From: Takakia lepidozioides
Lineage: Eukaryota; Plantae; Bryophyta
NCBI GenBank assembly: GCA_030704615.1
Contig: CM060733.1
Location: 61,566,001 to 61,630,000 of the forward strand
Length of the DNA stretch: 64,000 bases
Reading direction: 5' to 3'
This document shows positions 6,001 to 54,162 of the stretch, one piece after another. A program made the translations under genes and the position numbers. Under the pieces are notes generated by a model. That model saw only the letters and a program-made list of their open reading frames with translations, ran no database searches and was not told the origin of the DNA. Each line of letters begins with the position of its first letter. Position 1 is the stretch's first letter.

Positions 6001-6403
6001 CCTCCCTGAATTGTTTCATGACTCGACCATCCTCTTTCTGTCCGAACGGAAGGTCTGATGCCTCCAGCTTGGAGCATAACAAGTTGCACATTAGGATGTA
6101 TTTGATCTCATAAGTAATTCTCAACACTACAAAGAAATAATGTGCTTTAGAGTCCTCGTCCATGCAAAGATGCCAAGTTTCCCCTGTCCTCTCAAAGGGC
6201 AGACAGAGAGGGGAGCGCCCAAGGAATATACCAGTCCAAACCAAGTGACAATGTTTGTCATCGTCTCCGCCTTCTTCCCATCCATTCTTATGAAGCACAA
6301 TACGTAGGACTTCATACTTGCAACAAGAGAGGTCAATCATCGGCACATCTCCCTTTCTGGTCCTTCTCTTTGACCCTGGTGCTGACCCCAGCCTTTTCTT
6401 CAT
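1..6403 (-). CDS. Tubulin polyglutamylase, TTLL6/TTLL13-like, multi-exon, 3' end runs off the window
   Basis: GT-AG exons read by eye: 6403(or 6438)-6232, 5772-5649, 5328-5199, 4059-3875, 3450-3066, 2966-2841, 2316-1254, then probably 1109-1004 and 673-<1 (open frame to base 1, phases consistent). TTL-domain motifs: QKINHFHGMLSICRK, YILKPDNGSQGRG, QKYL..P.LINGYKFDLRIYVL, EGIVRFCT..Y, MHLTNYALNK, CFELLGMDVLID..PWLLEVNHSPSF.IDTPLD. Confidence 0.9.
3810..3843. repeat. (ACACAA)n microsatellite in a TTLL intron
   Basis: About 5-6 copies of acacaa visible directly. Confidence 0.9.
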
Positions 6404-10359: not shown

Positions 10360-10633
10360 TAGAACGTGATCAGTGTGCAGTCAAGTGCCTGCAAATTCTG
10401 TGCTTGCTCCCACAAATTTCTCACAAAACTTGTACAACTTGAAAACTGATCATGGTAAACTAATGTGTGCGTGAAGGGCAAGGTCTCAAGCAAAGATCTT
10501 CATGGCAATAAGTTAATGTTAACAATCAAAGCCTAAAGGTCAGCAAGTAGAATATTAGGGCTTGCCGCATGATGCATTGAAGTAAAACATTTGAAATGGG
10601 TTTGAAATTATGTCGATCTAGATCAGAGTGTGT

Positions 10634-14694: not shown

Positions 14695-15545
14695 TGTCGT
14701 GCACCTAAGCATCATGCCGCAACATACATTGTTGCCCAACCGCACTTCCTAGCATATAATCCTAAACAACTATGCCACAATAAGAGAAGTGAGAAAAGAT
14801 GAACCCACTCTATCACTCTATGTCAAGCCAATGGCACCTTTGCTAAAGGACTCCACCATAAAGACTTCACCCACATTCCATCTCAAGTACTAGAGCTATG
14901 GCAGCGAGAGAGGCATCGGGAAGCTCGATAGAGTCTTCCTGAGCCTCATGTGGAGATAAACCTCTCCACGTCCCAAGTGAGGTTCGCCACCTCACTTGGC
15001 ACATGGAACCAAATGAAGTCCTTATGCCAACAAAATATAAATATAAATGTAATTAGCTAAAGATAATTATTTCTACTAACTATGACTAAAACCATGACAA
15101 CTGTTGTACACATACATCGTTGTCCAACCACACTTCATAACATGTAATCCTAAAAAACTATCTCACAATCGCCCTCTTAGCTGGTGATTAGGTCCCCTTA
15201 ACACCGGATAGCTGACAAGTATCCATCCCAATAAGACCATCGTTTGGTCTCCAACCGCACAATTCCCAGTTTCTGAAGTCGCTAGATCAAGAGGCTGGGT
15301 GCAAAAGTAGCCCCATCGTTAGTCGTATGTCTGCAATCCATGATCTTCAATTGAGTATCAAGGGCGTTGAACTCCCGCTAGCTAGACCTTGGATCACTTG
15401 TCAACCTCACCATTGTCATGCCCACTACCTCTGTCTAAGGCATCATCGATACAACCATTCTCCGCTAGGAACCTCCTCAAGTGGAGGTGTCAAACATCCT
15501 ATGTACTACCCCCTTGAGCATTTATCACATACCCAATACTACTGC
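14695..15545 (-). mobile_element. Decayed 3' end of a relative of the 29-41 kb Gypsy element (PHD remnant, 3'UTR, PPT, A-B-A terminus)
   Basis: Minus strand encodes VCDKCSRG*YIGCLTPPLEEVPSGEWL. It shares a 3'UTR motif (GACTAACGATGGGGCTACT) and CCAGCTA(purine run)CGATTGTG with 40330-40490. Segment A occurs at 15102-15167 and 14695-14781, and the element ends ...GCACGACA. Confidence 0.85.
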
Positions 15546-16544: not shown

Positions 16545-16686
16545 GTAATTTATGGTGTCACTTGACCCCGAAGGCTACTGCCTTCCAGCAGGAAGGTGGA
16601 CACCTTCATGACACACTAGACGGTGGTTTGAACCCACAACCACATCCAACGTGGTATGTGCCCATTACCACTGGGCTACATGCTGG
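16545..16686 (-). mobile_element. tRNA-derived SINE-like repeat, family 1, copy 1
   Basis: Minus strand has an A-box TAGCCCAGTGG and a B-box GGTTCAAACC. The 3' end CAAGTGACACCATAA is shared with copies at 24308 and 50659. Confidence 0.7.
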
Positions 16687-17013
16687 TTGTCAAATTAACA
16701 TCAACTGAACGCAAAATGAACACCATTACATCAGCCAGCTTGGCCTTTCTTAATTGGTTCCACAGATTTGCTTAACCAGGTCAGATGCCATGCAGGCAGG
16801 TGAGGATAAGCTAGTTGTTCAGGTAAAGACAAATGTTTAATTAGCATGAATGTTGCCCCCTTCACGGTGTTTCCATCCTAACGGTCATCCATCCATATTT
16901 ATGTCATGGAATATCATGTAGGTGGAATCAGCGGGTTTACATTAGACATAGGATGGGAGTTGAATGCGCGTGTGCGAAGCTTGCCGGTACGGTCTTCGGA
17001 GCTAGTTGGAGGG

Positions 17014-24437: not shown

Positions 24438-25486
24438 CTCCATCCAATATCTGCCCCAAACACCCGAAAAATCAAATCAGCTAGAGGCGAGCTGACGCTT
24501 AAGCGACTGTCCAAATAGAAGTGGCAGCGTGCATTCTAGCCCAAGTGGTAAATGGCATGGCCCCACTTGGCCGCCAAGTGCCGCTGTGTGGGCACATAAT
24601 TATGGAAACTTCTAAAGTCCATAACCTTCTAAGGGGGTCCGCTGGAACACATCCGCCTAGCCGCTTTTAATTCTAGCACGGGCTGCAGACGGCAGGGTGT
24701 AAGAAGAGCACTGTACCAAACCAGGCAGGGAATGTAGCTGAGCGAGGATGAGCGCGAGGACCGTGTAGGGGAGGATGGAGCCCATGAAAGTAGAAGCACA
24801 TTGACAATCAAAGACGTGTACATTCCTATGCACTATTGGACTTGTAAATCGAGATGTCTATATTGATTGATGGTTGTCTCTGAATTTTATACACAAAATT
24901 AGCTTGCTATCGGATTTGGTTTTGTTCTGAACTCTACTCCGCAACCCATCTGACAATTTTCTCAAGATCAACAGGAGAATAAGGGGATGGGTTGCGGAGT
25001 AAGGTAGCGGCATCTAGAAGTGTTCGTTGCCTTTGTGTGTCCCTTATTTTTAATGAATGAAGTAATTACGCGGGGTCCCACTACTGTGCACTTTTGTCGT
25101 GGAGACAGTTCAAAATACAAATTTGCTTCCGCTTAGGTACAGCATGGTGTGCTTTGAAGTATGTGCAGCTTAATCAATGGTAGATTAGTGAAGATAATTA
25201 CGCAACAATGCGGCCGATTTTCGATTCAAATTCAGATTCGTTTTTGAAAATGGAGCGGGTGTTTTGGGACGACGCCCAGTTATTATAGCAGCCACACATG
25301 AATGCAGTGTGGATTCGTTATGAACTTCATATACTACTAAAATGCACACAGTTTATCTTGTTTCAGTTTATAGCAGTAGCTAATCTCACCCATAATGGAC
25401 TTGAATTTCCGTCTTAGCCAGGCCTTCAGATTGCTGCCAGACACAACTCTACGCCTCCGTCGGTTTCTCGGAAGAAAAGCATCTTA

Positions 25487-26452
25487 ATGAGTGAAACCAT
25501 GGTGGCCAAATGGGAGAGTGGTATTTTCAATACTATGAAGAAACTACGTGGTTTGGATCCACCACGAGATGATGAATTCGAGCTCGAGACATTTGATTCA
25601 TTTGGCATTCCATATGCACGGTTATGGTGTCATGAATGTCAAAAAGAATATGGGTCCAGGTGCACACTTGATAAAGATCCAAACATGGTGTTGGACAATT
25701 TTTTCAGGAAGCACGTCCGAGGTTGCACCAAACACGAAAAGAATTATGTTGCACGTCGGAAAAGAAAATTGAAAGATGGTGTCCAACTAGTCACTTCCTT
25801 GGTTGCTGAAAATGGACATCCTCCACTTACTTTCCTTCCAATCACATACAACTTCAAAGTTGTGATTGATGAAGCAATTTCTGAACTTGAAGCTTTCAAC
25901 AATGAGAGGGCAGATGCACGTTTTTTGGTAATTGACCATACAATTGATTATAGTGACCATCGGCGTGTGAAATTCAGATGTGAGATATGTCGTGATCGTT
26001 TCTTTCAGCTTTGTCCTCGAACTGGAAATTTGAGGACAAGCATGATAGAACATCTAAAGGCCAATCGTCACATTGTGAATTATGGTAAAGAACAGACTGG
26101 AGAGGAGGAGGGAGGTGTGGCTCTTACTGGGCTCAGAGGTCGACCCAAGAAACGAACTCTTCTTTCAAATCAGACCTCATTGTCCACTTTTTTCCGACGT
26201 GTGGTTTCTAAGCCTAATAATGGGGCGATTGAGTCAAGTTCTTCAGAGGACTTGCGCCCAACTATAGAGAGGAGATCAGAAAAGGTTGATGGAGGCGTTT
26301 GTGATGAAAGGACCGCGGAGGGTTTTTCACCGCTACCATCGTCTTCCGCTGGTTTTTATGTGGAGCTTCCCTTGGAAGAGAGCCGAGAACATCTTCCTAG
26401 TCATTCTCGTTCAACTACTACAACTGCCCCAAGTAAGAGCATAACAAGATGA
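25487..26452 (+). CDS. Single-exon protein with two C2H2/BED-like zinc fingers, an AT-hook and a PIP box, probably transposon-derived
   Basis: Intact 321-aa ORF. CHEC...HVRGCTKH and CEIC...HLKANRH fingers, RGRPKK AT-hook, and QTSLSTFF matching the Qxx[LIM]xxFF PCNA-binding consensus. Confidence 0.65.
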   Translation: MSETMVAKWESGIFNTMKKLRGLDPPRDDEFELETFDSFGIPYARLWCHECQKEYGSRCTLDKDPNMVLDNFFRKHVRGCTKHEKNYVARRKRKLKDGVQLVTSLVAENGHPPLTFLPITYNFKVVIDEAISELEAFNNERADARFLVIDHTIDYSDHRRVKFRCEICRDRFFQLCPRTGNLRTSMIEHLKANRHIVNYGKEQTGEEEGGVALTGLRGRPKKRTLLSNQTSLSTFFRRVVSKPNNGAIESSSSEDLRPTIERRSEKVDGGVCDERTAEGFSPLPSSSAGFYVELPLEESREHLPSHSRSTTTTAPSKSITR

Positions 26453-27512: not shown

Positions 27513-28343
27513 GTAACAATGAGGCAAAACTTCCACATCTCAGTGGACCTATCAAGCATATAGCTGTAATGAAAAAAGCTGACAAATAGCTAATCATGTT
27601 TGCACCTAAAAGTTCGAGATGTAGAGGCCACCACAATATCTTAATACATATGGCCACAACACTTCATGTCATAATCCCTCACGTGGAGATCTCCTAGAAT
27701 AATCTGAAGGAGTACCGCAAATGCAAAAATCCCTCCCCAAGCCGCATTCAGATTCAAGTAAGTTGCCGCACTGTGGCACCTGCGTTTATACCTAATGCAT
27801 TGCTGCTGCGGCTGACGAGTTGGCAGATCACATGAACAAAATGCCAGAGCCTGCACAATGAAGAAAGTTGAACAAAGTCCGCACTGGAACTCTACTATTG
27901 ATGATGCACTTGACAATTCAGGGAATCATCTTCCACAAGATCTTAGCCAGGAAATCTACAGCCATCGGGGACTCCAAGAAGGAGTGCAATCACTACATAG
28001 AGTCTGGAGATGTTGGAAACCACTTAGATAGATCGAGTTGTTGCTGCAGCTGTTGGCGCCGCCACGAGAAAGACGCGGGGAAACTAGGGTTGCTAAGCGT
28101 GAAAAAGGAGGGAAAAGCAAAGAAGAGATCTCAACCGCACAGTACATCTTAGCAAAACTCAAGTGGTCTTAGGGTCAAATCCCATCTACAAATGCAAAAA
28201 AAGACTTGCACCCTTATATGTATATATAAATTTTGTAAAGTTTATATAAATGCATTACCCCTCCGTATACTTAAACATTTTGACAATCATACCCCTGCCC
28301 GTACATATATTTCGTACAAGATTTTTTTTCAAAACCCCCTGTG

Positions 28344-29107
28344 CGGAAAAATATTGATCTCACATGGTGTTGTAGCCTAATGAAAGAGTGGACCCCCCCC
28401 CCCCCCCCCCCCCCCCAGATCACGTTGACATCCCATACGTCGCACGCACTGCAGCCTCTAGACGTCTCCGTGTTCAAGCCTTTCAAGTCTACGTTTCGGA
28501 ACTATAGGGACGTGTGGAGTATAGCAAACAAAGGGAAGGCAGCCAAGAAAGAGAATCTAGTGCAATGAGTTTCTTTGGGACTGAAAAAAACATTGTCAGA
28601 AGTGAACATTAAAAAATGATTCTCCACCACAGGGATTTGGCCTCTGAGGCCTACTGCCATGGCAAACAAGATGGGGCCATGATCTAGTTTTGCACAAGAG
28701 CCACCTGCAGCAAATGAAGATCACACCAGCTGCATTGACGATCAGGCAGCAGATGAGGACCAGAGACGAGATCCAGCTATTGAGGAGGTGATTGGCAATA
28801 TGGTTTCCGAAACCCAAGAAGAGTGTATGCACTATTATGTGCAGATGGAGGACGATGAGGAGCCCACAAATGAGGTTGTTGATGAGGATATCCTTGCAAG
28901 CAGCCAGGAGTCTCAACCACTTGCCCCCGATCGGGAACTGTCAATGCTTGCATACACGGGTCCGAACAGTATAGCCTCACCCTACTAGAGGCTCCTGCAC
29001 CCAACATAAGGCGAGTGACTCAAGATGGACAAGTTTTGATCGATTATTCTAAATCCATAATTATGACTAGTGACGACTACGTCAATTCCCTGGAGCAGAA
29101 AGCACTA
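28344..29107 (+). mobile_element. pogo/Fot1-like transposase remnant, left copy of the duplicated target
   Basis: SHTSHALQPLDVSVFKPFK...NIKK.FSTTGIWP is the pogo DDE_1 C-terminal signature. Contains in-frame stops. Nearly identical to 41004-41764. Confidence 0.85.
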
Positions 29108-29453
29108 TGTCAAGTTAAATAAGCACAGTGTGAAAACAGCTAGAATAAAACTAGTTATTTGTATTTAACACTTGGATTTAGGTCAAGTGTTAAATCAGGT
29201 GTCAAGTTTAGTTTGACACCTGGTCCGTCTTATCTTCACGAGAGCGGCAGTCGCGCAGCTCATCTTTCTCGAGTTGAGCCTGCGCGACCGAGCTCCTTCA
29301 TGCGTTTAGATCTGAGTGTGCTTATGATGGGAGTGTAGGTTGTTGTGGGGTGGAGTCCCCATAGCTTGGGGTGCCCCTGGCTCGACTTCTATTTCTAAGA
29401 GTGATGGTTTGGTTTTCATGCTTTGCATCGTGTGTGTCCTTAGCTTTCTTATC
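29108..29453 (+). repeat. Terminal direct repeat segment B1 (346 bp)
   Basis: Identical to 40572-40917 except for two C/T differences seen by eye. Confidence 0.95.
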
Positions 29454-29454
29454 A

Positions 29455-29470
29455 CTCGAGAGAGATGAGC
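29455..29470 (+). promoter_or_regulatory. Putative self-priming primer-binding site
   Basis: CTCGAGAGAGATGAGC immediately after B1 is complementary to GCTCATCTTTCTCGAG at 29258-29273 (15 Watson-Crick pairs plus 1 G-U). No TGG-type tRNA PBS. Confidence 0.65.
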
Positions 29471-30322
29471 TTGCATCTGTGAGTGCCAGAGGTGAGTTTA
29501 GTTTTAGCACTTGTGGTTTTTGTTTTGAAAGTGAGAGAGACGGGGGCTCTATGTTGGTTAAAACTTGAGCTGCAGGTTTCTCTGGTAGATTCTAGCCTTG
29601 CGATTGATCATCAACTTGTCGTTGGTTTTCCTATGCCTGCCCCTAGTTTGCATGTGATCGAAGGCCTTCCTATGTCGGAGGCACCGGTGGTTCTTTACGC
29701 ATATATCAAGGGTCTCCACTTCCGAAAGGCAGATGCGCTCTTGTTGGATAAGTGATCCGGCGGCATTAGTTCGTCAGGTTCACAGTGTCATCGGCGACGA
29801 GCTTGCCTTACGCAGGTGTGGGTTAAAACAGTGCTATCAGGCCAGTAATCCAGGGAATCAACACACGAAGCTTCTGGACTGTGGCTCTTCTCCTGAGAAG
29901 GGGCTGCTGGGGAAGCCAACGTCATAGCTGAGCGCACATTCCAACTGGGTGCTTGGGTTGAGCCCTCCAGCAACGATGCTGACGAGGATGTAAAGGCTAG
30001 AATGGGCAGGGAGCTCCATCGGCTGGTCCTAAGTATAAAGCAAGAAATTGAAGCTGTTTCTTCTTCCCTGCTCTCTTGTTCGCAAAAGCCTGACCTTCGT
30101 CGTCCCCTATGCGCAGATGTGATCACAGAGGCTTGGATACTAAGTATCTGCAGCAGCAATGGATGCCATTAGATTTCCCGTTGCCATGGCCACTGGACGA
30201 CGAGAGGCCCTTGCAGCAACTGCAGAATCAGACAATGATAATTGTTGGTGACTTTGTCAGCTCCACCAAGCTTGCTAAAGCTCTCCTATGTGCTCTGGCC
30301 ACCGTTGCTCCTGTGGAGGTCC

Positions 30323-31050
30323 ATCTGCTGGTTCTAGAGTATCCTCCTGCATGTCCTCCGCCCAAATGCCCAGGGTTTATGATATGGTCGTACAATACAG
30401 ACACTAATCTGTAAAACCAGAATGCCTCCTGCTTGTGCTGGATGAACCGCAGCTGCGACGCAGGCCTTGAGACGCTTTGGTCTGCACTGACAGCCCGCAA
30501 TCGAAGACCGCTACTGTTTCTCCTTCTGCTCACATGCACGCTCCAGTTCTTGGCTTATAATTGCCCGCTGAGCAACAAGCCTGTCGACGCTAACCTATGT
30601 AAGCATGATGATGAGCTCAAACCTGCAGGATATCCCGAGAGAAGCCTTTGTTGGTTGTCCACAACTGTCACCGGCTTCCACTGCCATTGCAACGATGGTG
30701 CGGCCATCCTTGCAGCCATTGCCATCGCTGAACAAAACCCAATTCAAAAACAGCCTGACTTACTTCAGATTTGCCTCGATGATCCTACCTTGGTGGTGTA
30801 GATGTTGGTGGCGGCACGGGATTCGCCACATTGGGGATTGGAAAAACTGTGGATGCCAAGAATGTGAGCATTCTGGATCAATCTCCTCACCAGCTTGCTA
30901 AAGCAAAGGAGAAGGCACCTCTCAAGGAGTGCACGATTATTGAAGGGGATGCAGAGGACTTGCCGTTCGCGACCGACTACGCGGATCAATATGTGTCTGC
31001 ATGAAGCATTGAGTACTGGTCAGATCCACAGCATGGTATCAGGGAGGCAG
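30323..31050. pseudogene. VTE3: Captured fragment of MPBQ/MSBQ methyltransferase (VTE3/APG1) with the 5' part inverted
   Basis: Minus strand ~30719-30323: transit-peptide-like sequence, then RPASQLRFIQHKQEAFWFYR..YDHIINPGH/WAEDMQEDTLEPAD. Plus strand ~30775-31050: LDDPTLVV/DVGGGTGF.TLGI.KTVDAKNV.ILDQSPHQLAKAK.K.PLKEC.IIEGDAEDLPF.TDYAD.YVSA*SIEYW.DPQ.GIREA. Stops and frameshifts present. Confidence 0.92.
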
Positions 31051-31623
31051 TCGAGTTGAAGTGCAGGCTGCCGGTAATCTCCCTCCATGCGAGCTGGAAC
31101 TTACGGGAAACGACCTGAGAGTCAGCAATGATAAGTATGTGGGACGGACACCTGAACAAATGCAGCTGAGGGATGACGAAGCGGCAACGCGGTCCATCAT
31201 GGAGGAGAAGCCGATCGGAGTCCAACAAATCGAGCTGCTCCGTGGTAATGGCGAGGCGACCCCAAAACAACAGAGAACTACATGAACATGTTCGGAACCT
31301 GTAGATAACCTGGGAACAGTTTTTAATGGTGAGAACGTTTTGGTGTTAAAATAAATAAATTAAAAAAAAAAACCTTTTTTTTTATCTAATTCAAATGATT
31401 TAGAGCTTGGTTGGTCATATCTTTGTCAAATGGACTCCGTTTGACTCAGTTTTTGGGAGGATAGCTGCAGAAAGGGGAAATCTACCTACCTAGACTCTTT
31501 TGGGACTCTGCTAAAAATCTATGGAATTTTTAGAGTGTGAGTGTGCCATAAAAGATCCACAATCCTGTCTCTAGAACCTGTGCTGGTCTATATGAGAGAC
31601 AAATTTGTGGATGTACTCCTTGC

Positions 31624-32250
31624 ATGGCTGGGGGAAATGAGGACGTAATTGAAGGGCAGGTCTCTTCTCTTAGCCTGTGCACACAAGGGGACAGGATTTA
31701 TGTTTCCCAAGGAACTCAGACTGATTTGAGTGGAGAACAGTTGGACGAGTTGATTGCATACTGGGAGTCAGGCATTAGCAGTAGACAACAGACTGCTGTA
31801 GTTGGCATTGAGGGCCTCAATATCGCCTTGGACAGTCAGAACTCTGTTGGAGCCAGCAGTTCTGCAGCTGTAGGTGAAATACCAAAGTGGGTGAAAGCTA
31901 GGCTTGGAACACAGCCAAAGACAGCCCCGGGGACCAAGGTGTTCAGCCACAAGGCCGTGGTGTACTGGAGCAGAGGAGCAGGAGCTACACAAGTTTGTGC
32001 AATCAGACATGGTTGCAGCCGGATACGCTCTGCACAGGGCAACCACGAGCGGGGGTTCATCAGCAATGACATGTTTGTTGTGCGTGAAGGAGATGCAGTC
32101 ATTCGCAATGAGGACACCCGCAACCGTCTCAAAGCTTTCGAGTTGAGAGACTATCAGACCCTACCTTTGTTTTCTTTAGTGTTCAGTGAGCGGGAGATAG
32201 GGAGTATTGCTTTGTCTCTACCTGGCAGAAAGAGGAGGAGGGTTGGTTAG
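31624..32250 (+). CDS. Extra 208-aa ORF upstream of gag, function unknown
   Basis: ATG-initiated, uninterrupted, sense-oriented ORF within the element leader, ending in a basic RKRRR tail. Confidence 0.4.
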   Translation: MAGGNEDVIEGQVSSLSLCTQGDRIYVSQGTQTDLSGEQLDELIAYWESGISSRQQTAVVGIEGLNIALDSQNSVGASSSAAVGEIPKWVKARLGTQPKTAPGTKVFSHKAVVYWSRGAGATQVCAIRHGCSRIRSAQGNHERGFISNDMFVVREGDAVIRNEDTRNRLKAFELRDYQTLPLFSLVFSEREIGSIALSLPGRKRRRVG

Positions 32251-32892
32251 AGCGAGCTACTGTAGCTTGGGACAAGGTTAGTGGCAGGTTTCTGGACATA
32301 GATATACCTCCTACACCTTACCATCATGCAGAGCGAGGCACTTTGAGAGAAGTCTGGCAGTTGATAGCATAGATCAGGATTAGATCTTGCTTGGTCGGGC
32401 TTCTATTCTTCCCCTCCATCTCTGTACTATTTTCATTACCTTGTACTTGTAGTTGCCAAAGCCTCTCTTGGTGGAGGCCAGTCAGTCCGGGGTTTTGGGC
32501 TGGGATATTCTGCAGGATCAGCATTGCAGCTGGATTTTGGTGTGGGGGTGTTGATGTTTTGATTTCTTGTGTTTGGATCCCCCCCAACACCTGCATGCTT
32601 GACTGTGCGCCATGTTGGTTTTGTGTGGGCGCTTGCTTTCATAGGGATTAGGCCGGATTTGATCACCGGTCAATCCTAGAGTATGCTGTCGGTGGTGAGG
32701 CTGGAGTGATGACCAGCAAGACCACCAGTGTTTCTTCTATGGTGAGGCTGGGTTGATGACCAGCCAACCATAGGAGTTCTTGCGGTGGATGCAGGTGCAG
32801 GTGCCCTGAGCCATTGGGATATGACCCTTAAAACTGCAACAGGTGCCCACCCGTGTCACTATTAGATTAGTACTAGAGCCTTATAGTGTCAC

Positions 32893-34494
32893 GTGGAGGA
32901 GGTGCACATTGTGAGTGTCATTACGGAGTTACCCAAGGGTTTTGAGGGGAGTACGGCTACAGGCAGTAACAGTGAGAGTGGGTTCACAAGACGAGGTATT
33001 CGGTTCAGACCACCTTCACCGCCACCCTCAATTACTGTAGAGTCAGACACAGACTCGGAGGCTTCATCAACAGGTGTGCACTTTCATTCGCCATTGTTGT
33101 GGGACGACATGGAGGAGATGTATGGAGCTACCAAGGGGCCTCGTAGGTACTCTGGAGCTGTGGGCACAATCGAGTTGGATGACTTTATCCAGGAGTTCGA
33201 CAGCTGGTGTGATTTGCAGCAGATGCGCAATCCACAGCTATTCACCCCATTCATGGCGTGGAAGGGACTGTTCCAGCATTTGGAAGGCCCGCCTATGGAC
33301 GATTACCACGAGTTCAGGCGAGGACATGAAGCAGAGATTGAGGAGTGGAGGATGTATTGGTCACCTGACTACGTCTCCATTACTCGAGGCACGACGCGAC
33401 CAGTAGCTGCATCAGTACCAATAGCTCCCACTGCCAGCACTAGTAGTGGAGCAGGTAGTGCTGGTACTTCTGCAGGTGGTACCAGTTCAAAAGGTGCTAC
33501 TACTCCTCCTGCCACAACTACAACACATGTGCCTAGATTCAACCCGGTGGTGGAGTTCTTCCAGGAGTTGCGGAGGAACTACCAAGGTGTACGGACAGAG
33601 AAGCTGCGAAGTTTGCAAGACTTCCAGCGCAAACCCAGTGAGAGCCTGCGAGAGGCGTACACTCGTATGAGGCGCTTGATAAGTGTGACCCAAGGGGTTA
33701 CTGAAGCTCAGGCAATCCAGTTTTGGTATGGAATTCTGGACAAGGAGCTCAAGAGAAGGGTGCGAGATGCAACCCTGTTACAAGCAGCCCAACCCACATT
33801 AGCAGATGTGTTTCTGCTGGCTGAGCGGATTGAGCTCAACATGGTGGAGGAGCGAGTTGTTACAATTGGATTTGGCAAGGACATGCCTGTACGGGGCACA
33901 GCTGTCAGCCCACAGGCACAAGGGACTGCCCAACAGCGTGGTCAGGGGGGCAAGGTTGCCCAGCCCAAGTTCCATGGAGCTTACAGGGGACCTCAGGTGC
34001 AGAGGCCCGTGGCATCTTTTGCAGGCCAACAGCAACCAGGGGTGATATGTTGGACATGTGGAGGACCCCATGTCAAAAGAGATTGCCCAGAGAATGGCAG
34101 AAGGCCGGCACAAGCACAGCCTGCACAGTTGCAGTGTGGGCATTGTGGCAAGTATGGGCATGGAGATGCCCAGTGTTATGACTTGCATCCTGAGTTGCGC
34201 CCAGGCCAGTTCCAAGGGAACAATGGTGGCCGGGGGCGAGGTGGACCAGCCCAAAGAGGACGAGGTGGTCGGGCACGAGGTGCAGGCCAAGGGCAAGCTC
34301 CACATGGCCAAGGACGCGGAGGTCAGGGTGTTGACCAAGGCATGGCCAATCGGCTTCAGCAGCTAGAGCAGAGGCTCGCTGCCATGGCTATAGCTCAGGC
34401 GGTACCGGCTCCCAGGCGGGATGGTCCACCTCCTGCTCCTGAGGGAGGAGATATGGGAGGCATGGGATTATGTGCGGAGCAGCACTACCACTAG
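32893..34494 (+). CDS. gag: Gag with two zinc knuckles and an RGG-rich region
   Basis: Retrotransposon-gag-like FQRKPSESLREAYTRM. Knuckles CWTCGGPHVKRDC and CGHCGKYGHGDAQC. The reading continues in the -1 frame (..ESAAAVTR..). Confidence 0.9.
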   Translation: MEEVHIVSVITELPKGFEGSTATGSNSESGFTRRGIRFRPPSPPPSITVESDTDSEASSTGVHFHSPLLWDDMEEMYGATKGPRRYSGAVGTIELDDFIQEFDSWCDLQQMRNPQLFTPFMAWKGLFQHLEGPPMDDYHEFRRGHEAEIEEWRMYWSPDYVSITRGTTRPVAASVPIAPTASTSSGAGSAGTSAGGTSSKGATTPPATTTTHVPRFNPVVEFFQELRRNYQGVRTEKLRSLQDFQRKPSESLREAYTRMRRLISVTQGVTEAQAIQFWYGILDKELKRRVRDATLLQAAQPTLADVFLLAERIELNMVEERVVTIGFGKDMPVRGTAVSPQAQGTAQQRGQGGKVAQPKFHGAYRGPQVQRPVASFAGQQQPGVICWTCGGPHVKRDCPENGRRPAQAQPAQLQCGHCGKYGHGDAQCYDLHPELRPGQFQGNNGGRGRGGPAQRGRGGRARGAGQGQAPHGQGRGGQGVDQGMANRLQQLEQRLAAMAIAQAVPAPRRDGPPPAPEGGDMGGMGLCAEQHYH

Positions 34495-35029
34495 AGCAGG
34501 TGGAGTCTGCTGCAGCCGTGACTCGAGGAGCAGCACGAGTTCCTGAGCCACGAGGTGCAGAGGTGGAATTGGATCCACAGCGTGGGGAGGCAAGCCGTCA
34601 GGCAAGGCTTCCTCAGTCATTCACATTGGCGGAGACTGTGTCGACGCCATCCATGGCACCTAGTTCTCGCCCGACTGTTACCGAGGCGGAGGTTACTATG
34701 CCATTGGGGAGAGCTACACGTGCAGCACTTGACACCTGCTGCCAAGGCTAGTGCGCCGGTGTGTTATTGGGGGCAGCCACCTCTGTGTGTCAGCCCCACT
34801 GTTCTCGGCAACATGATTGCGACGCCGGGGTGAGACCAGCTGCAGTGTTCAGACTAGCAGCAACACTCTGTGAGAGTGGGGAGGTCACTTCATCTTCTGC
34901 GGAGTTAGTGGAAGGTGTAGTGGCAGAGGGATCCTCGGATTTGAGGGTCAAGACTGCCACGGCTGCGCCATGGCAAGTTGCAGCTGCCAGGTTGACGGAG
35001 CTGCCAGCTAGGCCAGCCTTGAGCGCGCC

Positions 35030-35470
35030 ATGGTGACACCTGGAGTTGTCTTGTTAGACAACCAGGGAGGCATTTTCACTTTGAGTGGACCGGCAGGCAA
35101 GAAGTACCGGCCACTGCGGGTCTTGTTGGACTCAGGAGCTCAGCCACTGATGTTGGGCAGAGCTGCTATTGCAGGTTTGGGCCTCATGGAGGCGGATATG
35201 GAGCCTTGTCCTTTCCAGATACAGACATCTCTGGGAGGATCAGAGCAGGCTCGCGGCATGACACGGCATCAGTTGGCTATTAGACTGCAGCCGGATCATC
35301 CTGTAGATGGCTCAGTGATGCGAGCCAAGGCCATTGTGACAGACGCGGTCTCTTACGATGTCCTCGTTGGTGGGGCAGTGTTATACCCCATGGGCTTCAC
35401 CCTGGATTTCTGGGAGGAGTCAGCATCCTACAGGCCTGGATGGCAGTCAGGGGATGGTCGCCGTGCACAG
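35030..35470 (+). CDS. Aspartic protease domain of pol
   Basis: VLLDSGA catalytic motif and YDVLVG..L C-terminal motif. Confidence 0.88.
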
Positions 35471-35839
35471 CTCCCTGTGACATTCATTGGGGGTATTGCA
35501 GCTGCCCAGCGGGGCAAGATGCCAACACTAGCCGCCTTCACAGCTGCAGTTAGTTGGCCTGGAGAGTTGCTGGAAGGCAATGCCCATGCAGAGGATGTGC
35601 CACCTCCAGCAGAGCAGGATGACATGCATGGTACGGCGGAGTTGCCTGCCATGGTTGCTCACACTCCGTTGTGGGGTACGAGCAAGGATTTGCAGCAAGC
35701 TGCTGATGGACGGGTGCAACAAGCTTGGGAAGAAGCTTTTGTACCGTCAGGAGAGGAGGAGAGTGCGGTGATTGCACCAGGGCCACCTCAGTTGTCACCA
35801 TTGGACACCACACCTCTTGTGTGGCAGCGGCCGGATGAA

Positions 35840-36800
35840 GGCATTTGCCTTCTGGACTTGTTTGGCGGGATCAGCACCGGATTGGCTGCTGTGCTACAGG
35901 CAGGTGTGCGGGTAAGGCGTTACCTGTATGTGGAGAGGGATGAGACTGCACGACGCGTCTCACTGCGCCATGTGCTCAGTTGGTACAGCAGTACCCTGAC
36001 TTGTTGCCTGTGTCTGCAGTTCGTGGATACCAACAAGCCTTGCCAGCAGACATTTCCTTGTTGGGGGCGCAAGATTTGGAGCAGGTTGGCTCCATTGATC
36101 TGATAGTGGCAGGTTGGCCCTGCCAAGGGCATTCATCAGCCGGGCATGGCAATGGATTGCGAGACTCGAGGACGGGTCTGTTTTGGGAGATGGTGCGGAT
36201 TTTGCGCTGCTTGCAGCTTCATCAAGCTGTATCTCCAGCATACATCTTGGAGAATGTACCACTGATGGGTGATTCTCGGGCCAGGGTGATGGCCAGTGTG
36301 CATCAAGTCCGGTCGTGGCTTGGGTCAGCAGTGTTGCTGGATGCAGCTGCAGTGGGGTCACGGGCTCATCGTCCACGACTATGGTGGACTAACTTGATGC
36401 CACCCGCACTGCTCAAGCGTGCATTTGATGGGGTGCAGCGGCCAGCACACCTCACCGTGGATGGCATTTTGGACACAGGAAGGCAGTCTCAACGTGTGAG
36501 ACACGATGACCGTTCGCCTTTGGCAGTGGTCAACAGGGTGGGTCAACCACGAGCAGCATTACCTACACTGCTCAGCTTCCCAGGATCCCATGCTTTTCGG
36601 GATGGTGGACCTGGCCTCCTGTGGGATGCTCAGTTGCAGCAGTTAGTGGAGCCTAATGCCGACGAGCGAGAGCGGGCTATGGGGTTTTCCACTGGGACCA
36701 CGGCGGTGCCTTCTCTTTCTGAGGCATCACGTCGTCAGGTGTTGGGGCAAGCAATGGATCTCAATTGCTTGACCTGGATTGTCAGCTTGGCTATGGCTGA
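35840..36800 (+). CDS. DNMT3-like C5 cytosine DNA methyltransferase domain, with one frameshift at ~35975
   Basis: Motif I LLDLFGGISTG, II YVERD, IV DLIVAGWPCQGHS (catalytic Cys), VI YILENV, VIII AHRPRLWWTN, IX ERERAMGF, X RRQVLGQAM. The motifs are in linear order and resemble DNMT3 (SLFDGIATG, AHRARYFWGN, EMERVFGF, RQRLLG). Confidence 0.92.
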
Positions 36801-37089
36801 GCAACGTAGAGTGCGGAGTGCACTTCCCTTGACGGTCTCTCTGCCTACCGAGACGGTACAGGCAGCGAGTGGGGGCGAGCCGGTGAGGACCACGAGGTGT
36901 AGACATCCATGGCACATGTGGGAGGTGCTCGAGGTTCAGAGGGAGTTGGCAGCGAAGGCAGCTGTGATGGATGAGGTTGGGGATTCTTCTCGGGATGAGG
37001 AGGTTCTCAATGATGAGATGATGGGGCAGGATGAGGCCTTGTCATTGACTGAGCAGGAAGGGGGTACTGCTCAAGAGGTTGCAGCATAG

Positions 37090-40000
37090 CAACCACGGGA
37101 CGCGTCCTCTACCTCTAAGCCCACTGGACTTAAGGTTGCAGTTACGGAGGACAATTGGGAGCCTGACATTGGACCCATTGTCACCGGAGGAGAGAGACGA
37201 CGTATACGGCGGTTCCTGAGGGCTTACAGGAATTGCTTTGCCTTCAGTTTGAAGGACTTGGGAGCACTGAAGGGTCAAGAGATCCGTATTGAGTTGGCCA
37301 CTGACACGCCAATCTTTCGGAGACCCTATAGATACAGTGACATGGAGAGGTCTTTGATTCAGATGAGGACTCAAGATCTCTGGGAGGCAGGTTTGGTGGA
37401 GCTCTCTGGTGGAGAGTATGCTTCAGCCACAGTGATGCCAGCTAAGAAGGATGTCTATGGCAATTGGACGGAGAGACGTATGTGCGGTGATTACCGGCCT
37501 GTAAATCGTCAGACCAAGTCCGATAGGTATGCCATGCCAACACCAGAGGAGATCTTTGATGCCATTGGGCATTCCAAGGTCTTTAGCACGTTGGATTTAC
37601 GATCCGGATATCACCAGTTGCCGATCAAGGAGGCGGATAAGCAAAAGACGGCATTCTGGGGGATCAATGAGCACGGGAAGGATTGCCTATACCAGTGGCG
37701 GTTCTTACCATTTGGGCTTAAAAACGCTCCCGCTGAGTTTCAAAGAGTCATGGACAGGATTCTAGCAGGGGTGGAGTTTGCTCGGTGCTACATAGATGAC
37801 ATCATCATCTTTAGTGCTACGGTGGAGGAGCATGAGAGACACCTTCAGGGGGTATTTGAGCGCTTGAGGACGCACGGATTGAAGTTACATCCGGGCAAGT
37901 GCAAGTTTTTCCACAACCAGATTGAGTATCTGGGTCACATGATATATCCTGGAGGATTGGGGGTACAGCAGACTAAGGTAGAGTCCATTGCACAGGTTCC
38001 ACGCCCCACGGATGTGAGCCGAGTTCGAGCTTTCATGGGGTTAGCAAACTATTACAGACGGTTTGTTAAGGGATTTAGTGCCATTGCAAAGGCTCTAACC
38101 AAGCTGACCAAGGTGGACCAGGAGTGGCAGTGGGAAGATGAGCAAGAACAAGCTTTTCAAGAGCTCAAGGCGAGGTTGACCTCGGCGCCCATCTTGAGAC
38201 GACCTATCAGGGGGCGTCCTTTTCAGCTGCATACAGATTGGAGCATGCTGGGGCTTGGAGCGGTGCTCACACAGGTGGATGATGAGGGAAGAGAGTTCGT
38301 AGTGGCTTATGCTAGCCGCTCGAACAATGCTGCAGAGTCTAAGTATAGCTCATATGAGGGAGAATGCTTAGCTGCAGTGTGGGCCGTGGCACACTTCAGG
38401 TGCTATCTATACGGCAATCTCTTCACCCTTGTCACGGATCACCAACCACTCAAGTGGTTGATGGAGTCAGACAAGCTTACGGGGAAGCTTGCACGGTGGG
38501 CACTCATCCTTCAAGAGTATGACTTTCAGGTGGTGCATCGACCGGGTTTGGTCAATCGAAATGCAGATGGGTTGAGTCGCAATCCATGCACGAGCCAGCA
38601 GGATGACACTGGAGCTCGGTGGCATGGTGAGACGGACGAGGAGATGGTGCCCGGATGGCATGCATCTGCATTTCTGTGTATCTTGGCAGCGGAAGGCCAG
38701 GTTGGACCTACAACAGGGATGACTGTAGATCAAGTGTCTGAGGACCCTGAGGCCAGCAATGAGCAAGGTGGCGCCAAAGATATACATGAGGATTCAGTTG
38801 TGTTGGACTACCTCCGCAGTGGAGACACGGCAGCCACTATGACTGCCAAGGAGAGGGATCGGATCCTACAACGAGCCAAGAGGTTCAGGTGGGAGGGGAC
38901 ACACCTGCTCCGAGTGTGGGAGGATGGTCGAGTGAGGATTGTGCCTCACCCAACACAGCGGGCACGGTTAGTGCGGCATGCCCATGAGGAGTTGGGGCAT
39001 TTTGGGGTGCGACGCACTCATAGTCTACTGCAGGGGCAGTATTGGTGGCGTGGTATGCACACAGAGGTGCAACAATTTGTGGCTAGGTGCATGGTGTGTG
39101 ACAGGGTGCGTGCTTCATTCAACGCCCCTACTCCACAATTGCACCCTCTTCCGATCATGGGATTGGGCTACAGGTGGAGTCTTGACTTCGCAGGGCCGTT
39201 GCCACTGACCATGCGCCACAACAAGTACGTGTTGGTGATGGTGGAGCACTTCTCCAAGTGGATTGAATTGGTTCCATTGCCTGATAAGGCTAGTGAGGGA
39301 GCTGCGTATGCATTCTTGGATTGTGTGCTTAGCCGATTCGGTGCTCCAGCTGAGGTACTCACGGACCAAGGGAGAGAGTTCTTGGGGGAGTTTCAGGCTT
39401 TGTGTGACAAGGCCTTGATAGACCACCGCACCACTTCTCGGGATCATCCTGAGGCCGATGGCTTGGCAGAGAGAGTTGTTCAGACAGTAAAGAGGGGTTT
39501 GCGCAAGTATGGCTTGCAGAAGGGACACCTAGGAGATTGGGACCTTCAGTTACCCTGGTTAGCCATGGGCTACAGGTTCAGCAAGCAAGCATCACTTGCC
39601 TCCTTCTCACCATACTTTCTTCTCTTTGGCCGAGAGCCGGATTTGCCTACATCCATTCGCAGAGAAGCTGCTACAGTTCTTAACCTTGACGATCCGGACG
39701 TGTGGGCACGTGCATGTGAGCAGCGTGCAGAGTTGTTCAAGAGAGTCATGCCCATGGCTTTCGAGAACCTTGCCATTGCACAACACCGTGATACGTTGAG
39801 GTATGCTACCATACGTGGTGGGGGCTATCGTCCTGGGGTTCGGAGATTCAACCCTGGTGACTATGTCTATCTGCAGCAGACTGCTCCTACGACCCTGGAT
39901 GTGACTGCAGGACGTGTTATTTTGAGGGTTCGAGAGGTCTTGCCCTCAGGCGTCTTGGTCTTGGAGGGTCGGGATGGCATAACTTGGAAGGACCATGTGC

Positions 40001-40224
40001 GTAATTGTGCGCCATGTCACCTTCCGAATGTCGATGGCAGGATTGACCCAAACCTGGCAGTGGTATCTGCAGGTTTGAGGTGCATGTTGTGTGGGTCTGC
40101 TAAAGGGGCAGCCACCATGCTGGTGTGTGATCGATGCTCTAGAGGTTGGCATATGGGATGCTTGACTCCACCTCTTGAGATGGTTCCGGATGGGGATTGG
40201 TTATGTCCACATTGCATTGGATAG
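37090..40224 (+). CDS. pol: Pol: RT, RNase H, integrase and C-terminal PHD finger (uninterrupted)
   Basis: RMCGDYR, LDLRSGYHQ, LPFGLKNAP, YIDD. RNase H: LHTDWS, YEGECLA, TDH, NADGLSR. Integrase: HHCC, SLDFAGP, TDQG, DGLAER. PHD: C-X2-C..CDRC..H..C..W.CPHC. The frame is open from 37090, in frame with the MTase past one TAG at 37087. Confidence 0.97.
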   Translation, partial: QPRDASSTSKPTGLKVAVTEDNWEPDIGPIVTGGERRRIRRFLRAYRNCFAFSLKDLGALKGQEIRIELATDTPIFRRPYRYSDMERSLIQMRTQDLWEAGLVELSGGEYASATVMPAKKDVYGNWTERRMCGDYRPVNRQTKSDRYAMPTPEEIFDAIGHSKVFSTLDLRSGYHQLPIKEADKQKTAFWGINEHGKDCLYQWRFLPFGLKNAPAEFQRVMDRILAGVEFARCYIDDIIIFSATVEEHERHLQGVFERLRTHGLKLHPGKCKFFHNQIEYLGHMIYPGGLGVQQTKVESIAQVPRPTDVSRVRAFMGLANYYRRFVKGFSAIAKALTKLTKVDQEWQWEDEQEQAFQELKARLTSAPILRRPIRGRPFQLHTDWSMLGLGAVLTQVDDEGREFVVAYASRSNNAAESKYSSYEGECLAAVWAVAHFRCYLYGNLFTLVTDHQPLKWLMESDKLTGKLARWALILQEYDFQVVHRPGLVNRNADGLSRNPCTSQQDDTGARWHGETDEEMVPGWHASAFLCILAAEGQVGPTTGMTVDQVSEDPEASNEQGGAKDIHEDSVVLDYLRSGDTAATMTAKERDRILQRAKRFRWEGTHLLRVWEDGRVRIVPHPTQRARLVRHAHEELGHFGVRRTHSLLQGQYWWRGMHTEVQQFVARCMVCDRVRASFNAPTPQLHPLPIMGLGYRWSLDFAGPLPLTMRHNKYVLVMVEHFSKWIELVPLPDKASEGAAYAFLDCVLSRFGAPAEVLTDQGREFLGEFQALCDKALIDHRTTSRDHPEADGLAERVVQTVKRGLRKYGLQKGHLGDWDLQLPWLAMGYRFSKQASLASFSPYFLLFGREPDLPTSIRREAATVLNLDDPDVWARACEQRAELFKRVMPMAFENLAIAQHRDTLRYATIRGGGYRPGVRRFNPGDYVYLQQTAPTTLDVTAGRVILRVREVLPSGVLVLEGRDGITWKDHVRNCAPCHLPNVDGRIDPNLAVVSAGLRCMLCGSAKGAATMLVCDRCSRGWHMGCLTPPLEMVPDGDWLCPHCIG

Positions 40225-40484
40225 TGGGAGTGGATACAACCATGGAAGGCTAACAAGAAACGCAAGGCCCAGCTACTAGGAGACCTTGAACACACGAGGT
40301 CCTGGCTCAAGTTCACAGATTGCAAGACGGCGACTAACGATGGGGCTACTCTTGTACCCGGCCTCTTGGTCTATAGAGTTTGAGTACAATAGGGACAGTG
40401 ATAGAGGACTTAGTACGGCTGTGGCTATTACATCTTGTAGCTATCTGGAGGTAGAGGGACCTATCCACCAGCTAGGGGGGCGAT

Positions 40485-41004
40485 TGTGGCAGACTACTTT
40501 ATTGTGCATATATGTGTGGTGTGGTTTGGACAGCGATGTAGTTGTGTAGCGATATGTATGCGCACGACAGCTGTCAAGTTAAATAAGCACAGTGTGAAAA
40601 CAGCTAGAATAAAACTAGTTATTTGTATTTAACACTTGGATTTAGGTCAAGTGTTAAATCAGGTGTCAAGTTTAGTTTGACACTTGGTCCGTCTTATCTT
40701 TACGAGAGCGGCAGTCGCGCAGCTCATCTTTCTCGAGTTGAGCCTGCGCGACCGAGCTCCTTCATGCGTTTAGATCTGAGTGTGCTTATGATGGGAGTGT
40801 AGGTTGTTGTGGGGTGGAGTCCCCATAGCTTGGGGTGCCCCTGGCTCGACTTCTATTTCTAAGAGTGATGGTTTGGTTTTCATGCTTTGCATCGTGTGTG
40901 TCCTTAGCTTTCTTATCTATTGTGGCAGACTACTTTATTGTGCATATATGTGTGGTGTGGTTTGGACAGCGATGTAGTTGTGTAGCGATATGTATGCGCA
41001 CGAC
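40485..41004 (+). repeat. 3' terminal A1-B2-A2 repeat block
   Basis: A (~85 bp) at 40485-40569 and 40921-41004 brackets B2 at 40572-40917. The A1|B2 junction is GACA-GC-TGTC. Confidence 0.95.
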
Positions 41005-42193
41005 GGAAAAATATTGATCTCACATGGTGTTGTAGCCTAATGAAGAGTGACCCGCCCCCCCCCCCCCCCCCCGAGATCACGTTGACATCCCATACGTCGC
41101 ACGCACTGCAGCCTCTAGACGTCTCCGTGTTCAAGCCTTTCAAGTCTACGTTTCGGAACTATAGGGACGTGTGGAGTATAGCAAACAAAGGGAAGGCAGC
41201 CAAGAAAGAGAATCTAGTGCAATGAGTTTCTTTGGGACTGAAAAAAACATTGTCAGAAGTGAACATTAAAAAAGGATTCTCCACCACAGGGATTTGGCCT
41301 CTGAGGCCTACTGCCATGGCAAACAAGATGGGGCCATGATCTAGTTTTGCACAAGAGCCACCTGCAGCAAATGAAGATCACACCAGCTGCATTGACGATC
41401 AGGCAGCAGATGAGGACCAGAGACGAGATCCAGCTATTGAGGAGGTGATTGGCAATATGGTTTCCGAAACCCAAGAAGAGTGTATGCACTATTATGTGCA
41501 GATGGAGGACGATGAGGAGCCCACAAATGAGGTTGTTGATGAGGATATCCCTGCAAGCAGCCAGGAGTCTCAACCACTTGCCCCCGATCGGGAACTGTCA
41601 ATGCTTGCATACACGGGTCCGAACAGTATAGCCTCACCCTATTAGAGGCTCCTGCACCCAACATAAGGCGAGTGACTCAAGATGGACAAGTTTTGATCGA
41701 TTATTCTAAATCCATAATTATGACTAGTGACGACTACGTCAATTCCCTGGAGCAGAAAGCACTACTCAAAGTAGAAGCAGTTGCAGCTAAAGAGAAGAAA
41801 CAAGAGGACCAACGCATTGCACGAGAGAAGAGGGCGGCAGAGAAATTAGACAAACAAGAGGCAATTCGGATCAGAAAGGCAGAAGCTGCAGCCAAAAAAA
41901 CGTATGATGCACAGTGCACAAACAAGGCATTGGGGGAGTATGGCAATCGCCTGCATGCACTGTTGAAGTCAGGAGGGCCTATCAGGCACCATGCCCCGTT
42001 CTATGGATTGACACCCCTAATCTGCAGGCATAACAAGGCCATGGCAATACGACGACGTCGAGCAAAGAAGGCAGGTGAAGATAGTAGCCAGTTTGTCACT
42101 GTGGCTCCTACCTGGGCACACGGAGAGCAGTTACGTGGGGTCCCGCACTTGACACCATTGAGGAGTGTGATCGGGCAGCGAGAGGCAGCATAA
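41004..42193 (+). mobile_element. pogo/Fot1-like transposase remnant, right copy and C-terminal continuation
   Basis: Repeats 28344-29107, then reads on into IMTSDDYVNSLEQKALLK..., a coiled-coil C-terminus. Element ends not identified. Confidence 0.85.
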
Positions 42194-44536: not shown

Positions 44537-45604
44537 AGACAAGCTGATTTCCATGCCACAAGGTCGAGAAAGTCTAGTGATGGTGGAAAGACATCAGACT
44601 GCACTTGTGATTCTGGTGTGGATGGTCAAGCTCCTCCAAAACTGGATGAGTGTAACTCTCCGTGAGCCTGATTAGAGGGGCGGCTATGTCATACACAAGC
44701 TTGTTTAACATTTGTAAGTTGGACACGTTTGTACATTCCTCATTGTGCTACAAGCAATAGACAAGCTGATTTCCATGCCACAAGGTCGAGAAAGTCTAGT
44801 GATGGTGGAAATATATCAGACTGCACTTGTGATTCTGGTGTGGATGGTCAAGCTCCTCCAAAACTGGATGAGTGTAACTCCCCGTGAGAGCTTGTAAGTT
44901 GGACATGTTTGTACATTCCTCATTGTGCTACAAGCAATAGACAAGCTGATTTCCATGCCACAAGGTCGGGAAAGTCTAGTGATGGTGGAATGATATCAGA
45001 CTGCACTTGTGATTCTGGTGTGGATGGTCAAGCTCCTCCAAAACTGGATGAGTGTAACTCTCCGTGAGCCTGATTAGAGGGGCGGCTATGTCATACACAA
45101 GCTTGTTTAACATCTGTAAGTTGGACATGTTTGTACATTCCTCATTGTGCTACAAGCAATAGACAAGCTGATTTCCATGCCACAAGGTCGGGAATGTCTA
45201 GTGATGGTGGAAAGATATCAGACTGCACTTGTGATTCTGGTGTGGATGGTCAAGCTCCTCCAAAACTGGATGAGTGTAACTCCCCGTGAGCCTGATTAGA
45301 GGGGCGGCTATGTCATACACAAGCTTGTTTAACATCTGTAAGTTGGACATGTTTGTACATTCCTCATTGTGCTACAAGCAATAGACAAGCTGATTTCCAT
45401 GCCACAAGGTCGGGAAAGTCTAGTGATGGTGGAATGATATCAGACTGCACTTGTGATTCTGGTGTGGATGGTCAAGCTCCTCCAAAACTGGATGAGTGTA
45501 ACTCTCCGTGAGCCTGATTAGAGGGGCAGGTATGTCATACACAAGCTTGTTTAACATCTGTAAGTTGGACATGTTTGTATATTCCTCATTGTGCTACAAG
45601 CAAT
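44537..45604. repeat. Tandem array of five units (222, 180, 222, 222, 222 bp)
   Basis: Units start AGACAAGCTGATTTCC at 44537, 44759, 44939, 45161 and 45383. Unit 2 lacks 42 bp. Few substitutions between units. Confidence 0.95.
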
Positions 45605-45845
45605 AGAGCCCAAAGTGACTTGCACAAATGTTGTTGACAGCTACACCAGCATTCCACAAGAGAACCTGCCAAAGTGTTGATGTTCGTCAAGTTTCAGGCA
45701 CCAAGGTCAACCAGGGAGCATGAAACAGCTCGGGAATTCCTTTAAGATCCGTCTTATTGGTGGGACAACCGAGATGGCAAGGCGTGGGTTTCTTCTTTTG
45801 ATGTGAAGGAGTTTGTCTCGTCTTCAATGGTTGTTCCTGTCTGGA

Positions 45846-54162
<8,317 letters not shown>

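Follow-up and report, generated by a model that had tools for sequence, protein, structure and literature searches.

A Gypsy element with split repeats in Takakia lepidozioides and a proposed route of integration through an internal palindrome

How does a Gypsy retroelement with a DDE integrase come to lie in a genome with its terminal repeats split? The question is raised by an element at 29108..41004 of a 64,000-nucleotide stretch of the Takakia lepidozioides genome, here called the window (assembly GCA_030704615.1, contig CM060733.1, positions 61,566,001 to 61,630,000, forward strand); coordinates below are those of the window. Two repeat pieces, A and B, are arranged in the order B-internal-A-B-A, and this layout is real and family-wide. 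We think it probable that the integrase opens an end-joined, probably circular, complementary DNA (cDNA) at a palindrome inside the 5′ long terminal repeat (LTR), instead of using the ends made by reverse transcriptase (RT). The original prediction for this locus had proposed the layout and the opening of circles at the palindrome; its layout part stands, and it missed a 764-bp duplication, a methyltransferase, a PHD finger and self-priming.

Repeat layout and ends of the element and its relatives

Self-alignment of the window, a sequence search for the palindrome and comparison within the window and with relatives delimit the following features.

29108..29453, plus strand: B1, the 5′ repeat, starting with TGTC, the left integration end
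40474..40482, plus strand: polypurine tract (PPT), directly before A1
40483..40569, plus strand: A1, ending in GACA
40566..40575, no strand: palindrome GACA-GC-TGTC at the A|B junction, the putative integrase site
40572..40917, plus strand: B2
40918, plus strand: extra base at the B|A junction; a form without it is present in read contigs
40919..41004, plus strand: A2, ending in GAC, with the terminal A missing
14695..15533, minus strand: old 5′-truncated relative, comprising the end of a PHD finger, a PPT, A (15169-15102), a 2-nt spacer, B (15099-14782) and A (14781-14695)

The full order of the window copy is B-internal-PPT-A-GC-B-T-A. B1 and B2 differ by 2 substitutions in 346 positions, and A1 (40483-40568) is identical to A2 (40919-41004) at 86/86. 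The palindrome, GACAGCTGTC, lies where it had been predicted and occurs nowhere else in the 64-kb window. Its TGTC half forms the left outer end; the right outer end reads GAC and then G, so that the claim that both outer ends are exact halves of the palindrome holds on the left and fails on the right by the missing A. The B|A junction reads TTATC-T-ATTGTGG. The two complete LTRs of a canonical provirus are not present here: the 5′ end carries B only. The second copy in the window, the minus-strand relative running from 15533 to 14695, is decayed (68% nucleotide identity) and ends GCACGACA.

The wider set of relatives comprises 80 metagenome loci, merged into distinct insertions on shared flanks (L016 and L017 on identical coordinates). 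PPT-A-B-A is found in 26 of the 80 loci, representing 19 distinct insertions, and PPT-A followed by flanking DNA in 18, representing 17; one locus (L022) retains only the B|A junction and was used only in the ratio of 20 of 37. The 3′-end count does not include five cut or collapsed loci (L025, L034, L039, L079 and L006), nor 30 others that have too little downstream DNA, are truncated, or come from distant lineages in which the contig stops at the repeat or short of it. At none of the scored 3′ ends does flank follow a full A-B. All 11 distinct intact 5′ ends start with TGTC and have no A upstream (one with only 58 bases of flank), 5′ ends with a truncated B being uncounted (L019, L020 and L065); the mirror product, B-A-B-internal-A, accounts for 0/11. 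The scored ends thus include no copy with full AB or BA LTRs at both ends, an arrangement that would have spoken against the layout, and B-internal-A-B-A is borne out by self-alignment, by the second window copy and by the 19 insertions elsewhere.

Related copies begin with TGTC and end with GACA. Among the nine with both ends, a perfect 4-bp target duplication flanks six, three of the four bases agree in two, and one has none (chance 3e-12). A 4-bp duplication is the mark of a DDE integrase. These termini and duplications, whose mapping had been proposed together with the original prediction, are in keeping with it. Copies of the shorter form, B-internal-A (L002, L012, L029, L058 and 13 more insertions), keep the 4-bp duplication intact where both ends are visible; the exceptions are L002, which needs two more bases to call, and L026, which has none. 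Such copies would be dead on arrival because the repeat for strand transfer is missing.

Named relatives come from liverworts, Sphagnum, Klebsormidium, Closterium and chlorophytes, and those bearing a methyltransferase from liverworts, Sphagnum and Closterium. A quick integrase tree, unrooted and without an outgroup, groups the window element with sequences from bryophytes and streptophytes (SH-aLRT 97-99). No locus came from two scans of viral contigs.

Junctions and the proposed route of integration

Reverse transcription sets the natural ends of the cDNA, and two further features bear on it.

29258..29274, plus strand: predicted self-primer inside B, complementary to the primer site (fold z -4.4; 0/300 shuffles as good)
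29454..29470, plus strand: putative primer-binding site of the self-priming type, without a TGG start (fold and shuffle test)

Directly after B1, 17 bases are complementary to 29258-29274; two other families keep this pairing with a different sequence, which points to a self-primed element. Self-priming has also been predicted for Tcn1 (PMC6317226). The PPT precedes A and the primer site follows B, as predicted for the window copy, and RT would therefore define the repeat as A+B, again in line with the original proposal.

The A|B site is fixed, whereas the B|A junction varies. All 21 insertions scored have an A|B spacer of 2 nt (20 identified by pattern and L063 by eye); where GC has decayed, it has mostly become GT or AC. 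A CA-GC-TG site also lies downstream of the PPT or a G-run in six loci that are more distant (46-74% identity in the integrase). The exact palindrome 10-mer is absent from 372,947 internal bases. At B|A, a precise join of the primer-defined and PPT-defined ends is found in 8 of 18 insertions; the other ten carry +1, +2, a +19 insert, -1, -2, or deletions of about 8 or larger, and primer-site remnants are among them. For 10 insertions of one family, the distance of A2 from its own A1 is 0.090 and that from other copies 0.127-0.130 (permutation p 5e-5); the A2s form no cluster of their own (p 0.40), so A2 appears to be recopied with A1. Since B|A varies among insertions, it looks newly made each time; whether it varies or is fixed had been posed as a check, and the variation is that expected of end joining.

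A templated origin would account for part of this. The B|A junction could be made by RT or copied from the parent RNA, by an end-to-end template jump or in a PAT/Ngaro-like manner, with the linear cDNA then trimmed at its two palindromes. The eight precise junctions fit this scheme, as a near-fixed junction is also expected from a template, but the ten that differ, with their primer-site remnants and 19-nt insert, do not, nor does the tracking of each A2 with its own A1 and not with other A2s. We regard such an origin as distinctly improbable.

In the route that we prefer, the RNA would start inside B1 and prime itself. Judging from the positions of the PPT and the primer site, reverse transcription would yield a linear AB-internal-AB molecule; the variation at B|A suggests that host end joining would unite its two natural ends, with B|A made afresh in each cycle. 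The integrase would then cut both strands of GACA-GC-TGTC after CA, with a stagger of 2 nt, creating two new ends; a 3′ CA with a 2-nt 5′ overhang is the shape of processed retroviral ends. Insertion of the cut ends with a 4-bp duplication would give TG...CA termini, a step that is shown in the relatives. Two-repeat products come only from the 5′-LTR palindrome, and the palindrome used is the one nearer the natural ends throughout the families scored (A 87-176 bp, B 290-346 bp). It would be the only cut choice that leaves a replication-competent copy, and may be the first to become double-stranded in the final cDNA. One-LTR circles, double cuts or a later recombination between the two A pieces could account for B-internal-A copies. 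In the original proposal of circularisation followed by opening at the palindrome, the use of an internal CA-GC-TG, which leaves a 4-bp duplication, and an end-joining-like B|A have held up; the proposal is incomplete in that a 2-LTR circle holds two equal palindromes, and cutting them at random predicts the missing mirror form as often as B-internal-A-B-A.

An alternative dispenses with the circle. The integrase would cut linear cDNA at the 5′-LTR palindrome and insert both ends, and the host would close the natural-end break in the chromosome: end joining would give B-internal-A-B-A, and repeat annealing B-internal-A. The product and the variable B|A junction are the same as in the preferred route, the 17 single-A insertions are accounted for, and the missing mirror form could be explained if B-B annealing is efficient. 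This demands, on the other hand, a near-total loss of the mirror form. In addition, if Gypsy-7a of Chlamydomonas reinhardtii (discussed below) works alike, its 8-bp A piece would, given the footprint of an intasome, be too short to be bound as a separate end. We consider this alternative unlikely.

Several points weigh against opening of an end-joined cDNA. No circle, cDNA or cleavage has been observed directly. A sealed 2-LTR circle contains two palindromes, and the sequence around them is identical for 87-176 bp to one side and for about 300 bp to the other. The absence of B-A-B from the 11 scored 5′ ends (p about 2e-4 if cutting is symmetric) means that an extra cut bias must be assumed, an argument that quicker loss of B-A-B by recombination would weaken. 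Self-priming is clear (at most 3/300 shuffles) in only 7 of 11 sequences tested. Gene conversion could mimic the homogenisation of A1 and A2, and in a second family, of five insertions, the same test is uninformative (p 0.75). L026 has no duplication and keeps AGC before its left end. Finally, the window copy itself lacks the terminal A and the 4-bp duplication; in place of a short target duplication, it is flanked by a direct duplication of 764 bp.

Flanks, coding content and neighbouring features

The duplicated flanks of the window copy were delimited by self-alignment.

28344..29107, plus strand: X1, left copy of the 764-bp duplicated target, a pogo/DDE_1 transposase remnant
41004..41764, plus strand: X2, right copy of the duplication (PF03184 match)

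Flank copies X1 and X2 are 98.8% identical, with 3 substitutions outside a C-run region. The insertion point lies within a pogo-type DDE_1 transposase remnant (PF03184, matching part of X2). The right end of the window copy likely failed, and host repair then led to the lost A and the 764-bp duplication. For the duplication alone, a one-ended insertion has about an even chance of being the source, an assembly artefact is possible though doubtful, and recombination between two copies is less likely again. One-ended insertions of human immunodeficiency virus (HIV) come with duplications of hundreds to thousands of bp (PMC5041404), and the normal left end, truncated right end and long duplication of the window copy match them.

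Contigs assembled from public runs bear on these flanks. Depth over the duplicated stretch is not doubled and one diagnostic site shows the X2 base only; the read sample differs from the window elsewhere and may be another individual, and the reads neither confirm nor exclude the duplication. Read depth was not taken as copy number. Contigs span the B|A junction of the window copy's family, in agreement with the predicted A2: the form shorter by 1 nt appears in 2 contigs of one run and 10 contigs of another, both runs being from one sample. A ends in these contigs lead into the palindrome or into mixed sequence, and the family is abundant in this genome. Among the contigs listed, none bridges either outer junction of the window copy. 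A fall in depth at the end of B was rejected as a junction signal; judging from loose ends, it reflects sub-family divergence, which sets in before the junction. A search of public runs listed no RNA run that carries the element. A contig of one possibly-RNA run, from one study and not used here, stops 5 bases short of the A end. Within 28195-28321, the window is a base short of the read contigs at five positions, most of them in homopolymers, which suggests assembly indel errors; such errors could also account for the frameshift near 35970 and the absence of the terminal A.

Could an ordinary LTR element have been rearranged in this one instance, or misassembled, to give the layout? The abnormal 764-bp duplication, the lost A, the homopolymer differences, the undoubled depth and the lone X2 base would all suit that view. 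Set against it are the 19 distinct insertions in other assemblies and the second window copy, which share the layout, and the read contigs across B|A. The doubt is limited to the duplication; for the layout, we judge an artefact highly improbable.

The coding content was assigned by Pfam and by comparison with a Marchantia protein (P0123), with structure match and a residue check added for the last frame.

30783..31001, plus strand: leader fragment of an S-adenosylmethionine (SAM) methyltransferase, probably a captured host sequence and resembling a plant VTE3-type gene (PF13649, E 8.8e-10)
32887..34494, plus strand: gag, a stop-to-stop frame of 535 aa (PF03732, E 0.0012, below cut-off; 58% to P0123)
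35012..36103, plus strand: aspartic protease and first C5 DNA methyltransferase motif, frameshift-broken (no Pfam match itself; 53% to P0123)
35944..37089, plus strand: remaining C5 DNA methyltransferase, ending at an in-frame TAG (PF00145, E 2e-13)
37090..40224, plus strand: RT, RNase H, integrase and PHD finger, 1044 aa open

The domain order, gag followed by protease, RT, RNase H and integrase, is that of Gypsy; the RT is closest to Ty3, and Ty3 Gag-Pol is the best solved-structure match (E 7e-95). A PHD finger stands at the integrase C-terminus in place of a chromodomain (Pfam), and the C5 methyltransferase (PF00145), broken by one frameshift in the window copy, lies upstream of RT; in the intact relative L006, Pfam likewise finds Asp_protease and then DNA_methylase. 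An in-frame TAG followed by CAR (37087-37095) splits gag-protease-methyltransferase from RT-RNase H-integrase-PHD. L006 has the same two-frame build, and the stop with CAR is kept in at least 11 related loci (including L006, L048, L010, L019 and L061), so the TAG is not a product of decay. It is likely a read-through stop, a stop followed by CAR being a known read-through signal. The leader also holds a stop-free frame of 232 aa (31552-32250) with no Pfam match and no match in the 80 related loci.

The order of the repeats is that of PAT and Ngaro elements (PMC5890265), in which a tyrosine recombinase acts, and such an enzyme, supplied in cis or in trans, might integrate the circle at A|B. Pfam finds no tyrosine recombinase in the 58 open reading frames (ORFs) of 29108-35100, in the four main ORFs, or in four relatives, two of which are intact, for which the scan took in 69 of 98 listed ORFs (the other 29 lie over or beside decayed RT-integrase regions). 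The DDE triad is intact (D699, D759 and E794, a D-35-E spacing, in the 1044-aa ORF), and the TG...CA ends and 4-bp duplications are at odds with a recombinase. As originally predicted, then, the triad is present and no recombinase is visible, also in the ORFs scanned from relatives; this alternative is largely refuted, and we give it scarcely any credence. The element is Gypsy by its proteins; in structure, it is neither a canonical LTR provirus nor a tyrosine-recombinase element.

Elsewhere in the window, exons of a tubulin-tyrosine-ligase-family gene occupy 2967-6448 on the minus strand (PF03133, E 4e-22 on 2970-3485), and nested AT-rich inverted repeats, about 1.2 kb across, at 9193-10361 resemble a miniature inverted-repeat transposable element or a foldback element. 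Tandem repeats of 222 bp (44537-45607) and 237 bp (45983-46428) follow the element, the latter within a 338-aa open frame with no Pfam match. Stop-free frames of 336-388 aa, also without a Pfam match, lie at 25418-26452 (plus; two Cys/His motifs), 10634-11644 (minus) and 1249-2415 (minus). A weak SWIM zinc-finger match (E 0.01) at 59867-60544 (plus), amid low-complexity tandem repeats, is likely the remnant of a Mutator-like (MULE) transposase. Two tRNA-like copies, 71% identical (16546-16690 and 50658-50792), are possibly short interspersed elements; ARAGORN found no tRNA in the window.

Significance and comparison with known systems

End-joined circles of LTR elements are usually regarded as dead ends. 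If the preferred route is true, a retroviral-type integrase can routinely act like a circle-opening transposase, and the normal cycle of this lineage includes host end joining. There would also be a practical consequence: REXdb relies on two LTRs, TG/CA ends and a target duplication (PMC6317226), and finders that use criteria of this type may miss or mis-bound this family, abundant as it is in this genome.

The layout was first taken to be without precedent among described Gypsy lineages, and this is not supported. For KnitGypsy-Dnmt3 of Klebsormidium nitens, the Fig. 4c legend of de Mendoza et al. 2018 (PMC5890265) describes DIRS-type repeats with Gypsy domains. Like the element here, KnitGypsy-Dnmt3 has Gypsy domains, a C5 methyltransferase in the polyprotein region and DIRS-type order, A-coding-B-A-B; by contrast, its layout takes up one legend sentence, and the text of the article, as available to us, gives no termini, target duplication, palindrome or mechanism. 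The layout is thus described already and, in the literature searched, unexplained. The only K. nitens match in our set, protein P0303, belongs to the same integrase clade (SH-aLRT 99, quick unrooted tree) and has no methyltransferase by Pfam; identity with the KnitGypsy-Dnmt3 family is therefore not established by P0303. In that literature, from which most subscription papers, theses and Repbase reports are missing, nothing was found on the mechanism of this lineage, and KnitGypsy-Dnmt3 is named in no other paper; the accessible portions of PMC2774666, PMC9977147 and a 2026 DAM preprint contain nothing on the layout.

A second likeness comes from Chlamydomonas reinhardtii. According to the available part of Craig et al. 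2023 (PMC9940879), the left LTR of Gypsy-7a_cRei lacks the last 8 bp of the right LTR, and the family is active in laboratory strains, with 86 new insertions in CC-4532. In its repeat-library entry, by entry boundaries read by eye, the same 8 bp also stand between the PPT and GC-TGT, that is, B-internal-A-GC-B-A. Gypsy-7a is a PHD-bearing Gypsy with apparently the same layout; it differs in an A of 8 bp as against 87, and in an internal part that starts with TGG, a tRNA-type primer site. Common descent can be inferred only from a C. reinhardtii polyprotein (P0227), 44-47% identical and not identified as Gypsy-7a. Among the 24 numbered families of the library, judged by eye from entry boundaries, the internal entries of eight (2, 3 and 6-11) end in CA-GC and, except in 10a, the 6 to about 52 bases before it recur at the right end of the LTR; in seven others the entry ends directly with a purine tract, and a further six families are unclassed. 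In the remaining three, Gypsy-5a, -21 and -24_cRei, the internal entries start with GC-TG and the LTR start, a possible mirror layout, B-A-B-internal-A (PMC9940879 supplement). A short left LTR is stated for 7a only, and the Chlamydomonas match is a strong lead, not a result. As an active candidate, Gypsy-7a makes each step of the route testable. We put at even odds the broader proposal that a Gypsy clade found in chlorophytes, streptophyte algae and bryophytes carries an integrase site relocated into the LTR. Its normal substrate would be an end-joined cDNA circle, opened always at the CA-GC-TG nearest the circle junction, and its integration would resemble that of an IS3-type circle more than that of any LTR element studied; Gypsy-7a would be a member, and Gypsy-5a, -21 and -24 would have the mirror layout.

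Three other systems share single features with the element. PAT-, Ngaro- and TOC-type elements have split direct repeats in the same order, with an internal junction that matches the two outer ends, and use a tyrosine recombinase. SymbioDIRS is one such element by the available text of PMC5890265; here, in contrast, we find a DDE integrase, TG...CA ends and a 4-bp duplication. The Tf1/Sushi and Tcn1 chromoviruses are likewise predicted to self-prime (PMC6317226); they differ from the element here, which has a PHD finger for a chromodomain and split repeats. A precedent for the proposed cleavage is found among retroviruses. HIV integrase can linearise 2-LTR circles at the palindromic junction (PMC4372172), and circle cleavage has been treated for HIV-1 and foamy virus (PMC1180852, PMC1905944). 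There too, a DDE integrase cuts a palindrome within continuous DNA to give integrable ends. In those viruses, as far as the accessible text describes them, cleavage takes place where the circle was joined, regenerates normal ends and serves as a side route, whereas in the element described here the site lies inside the repeat, and its use is apparently the normal route.

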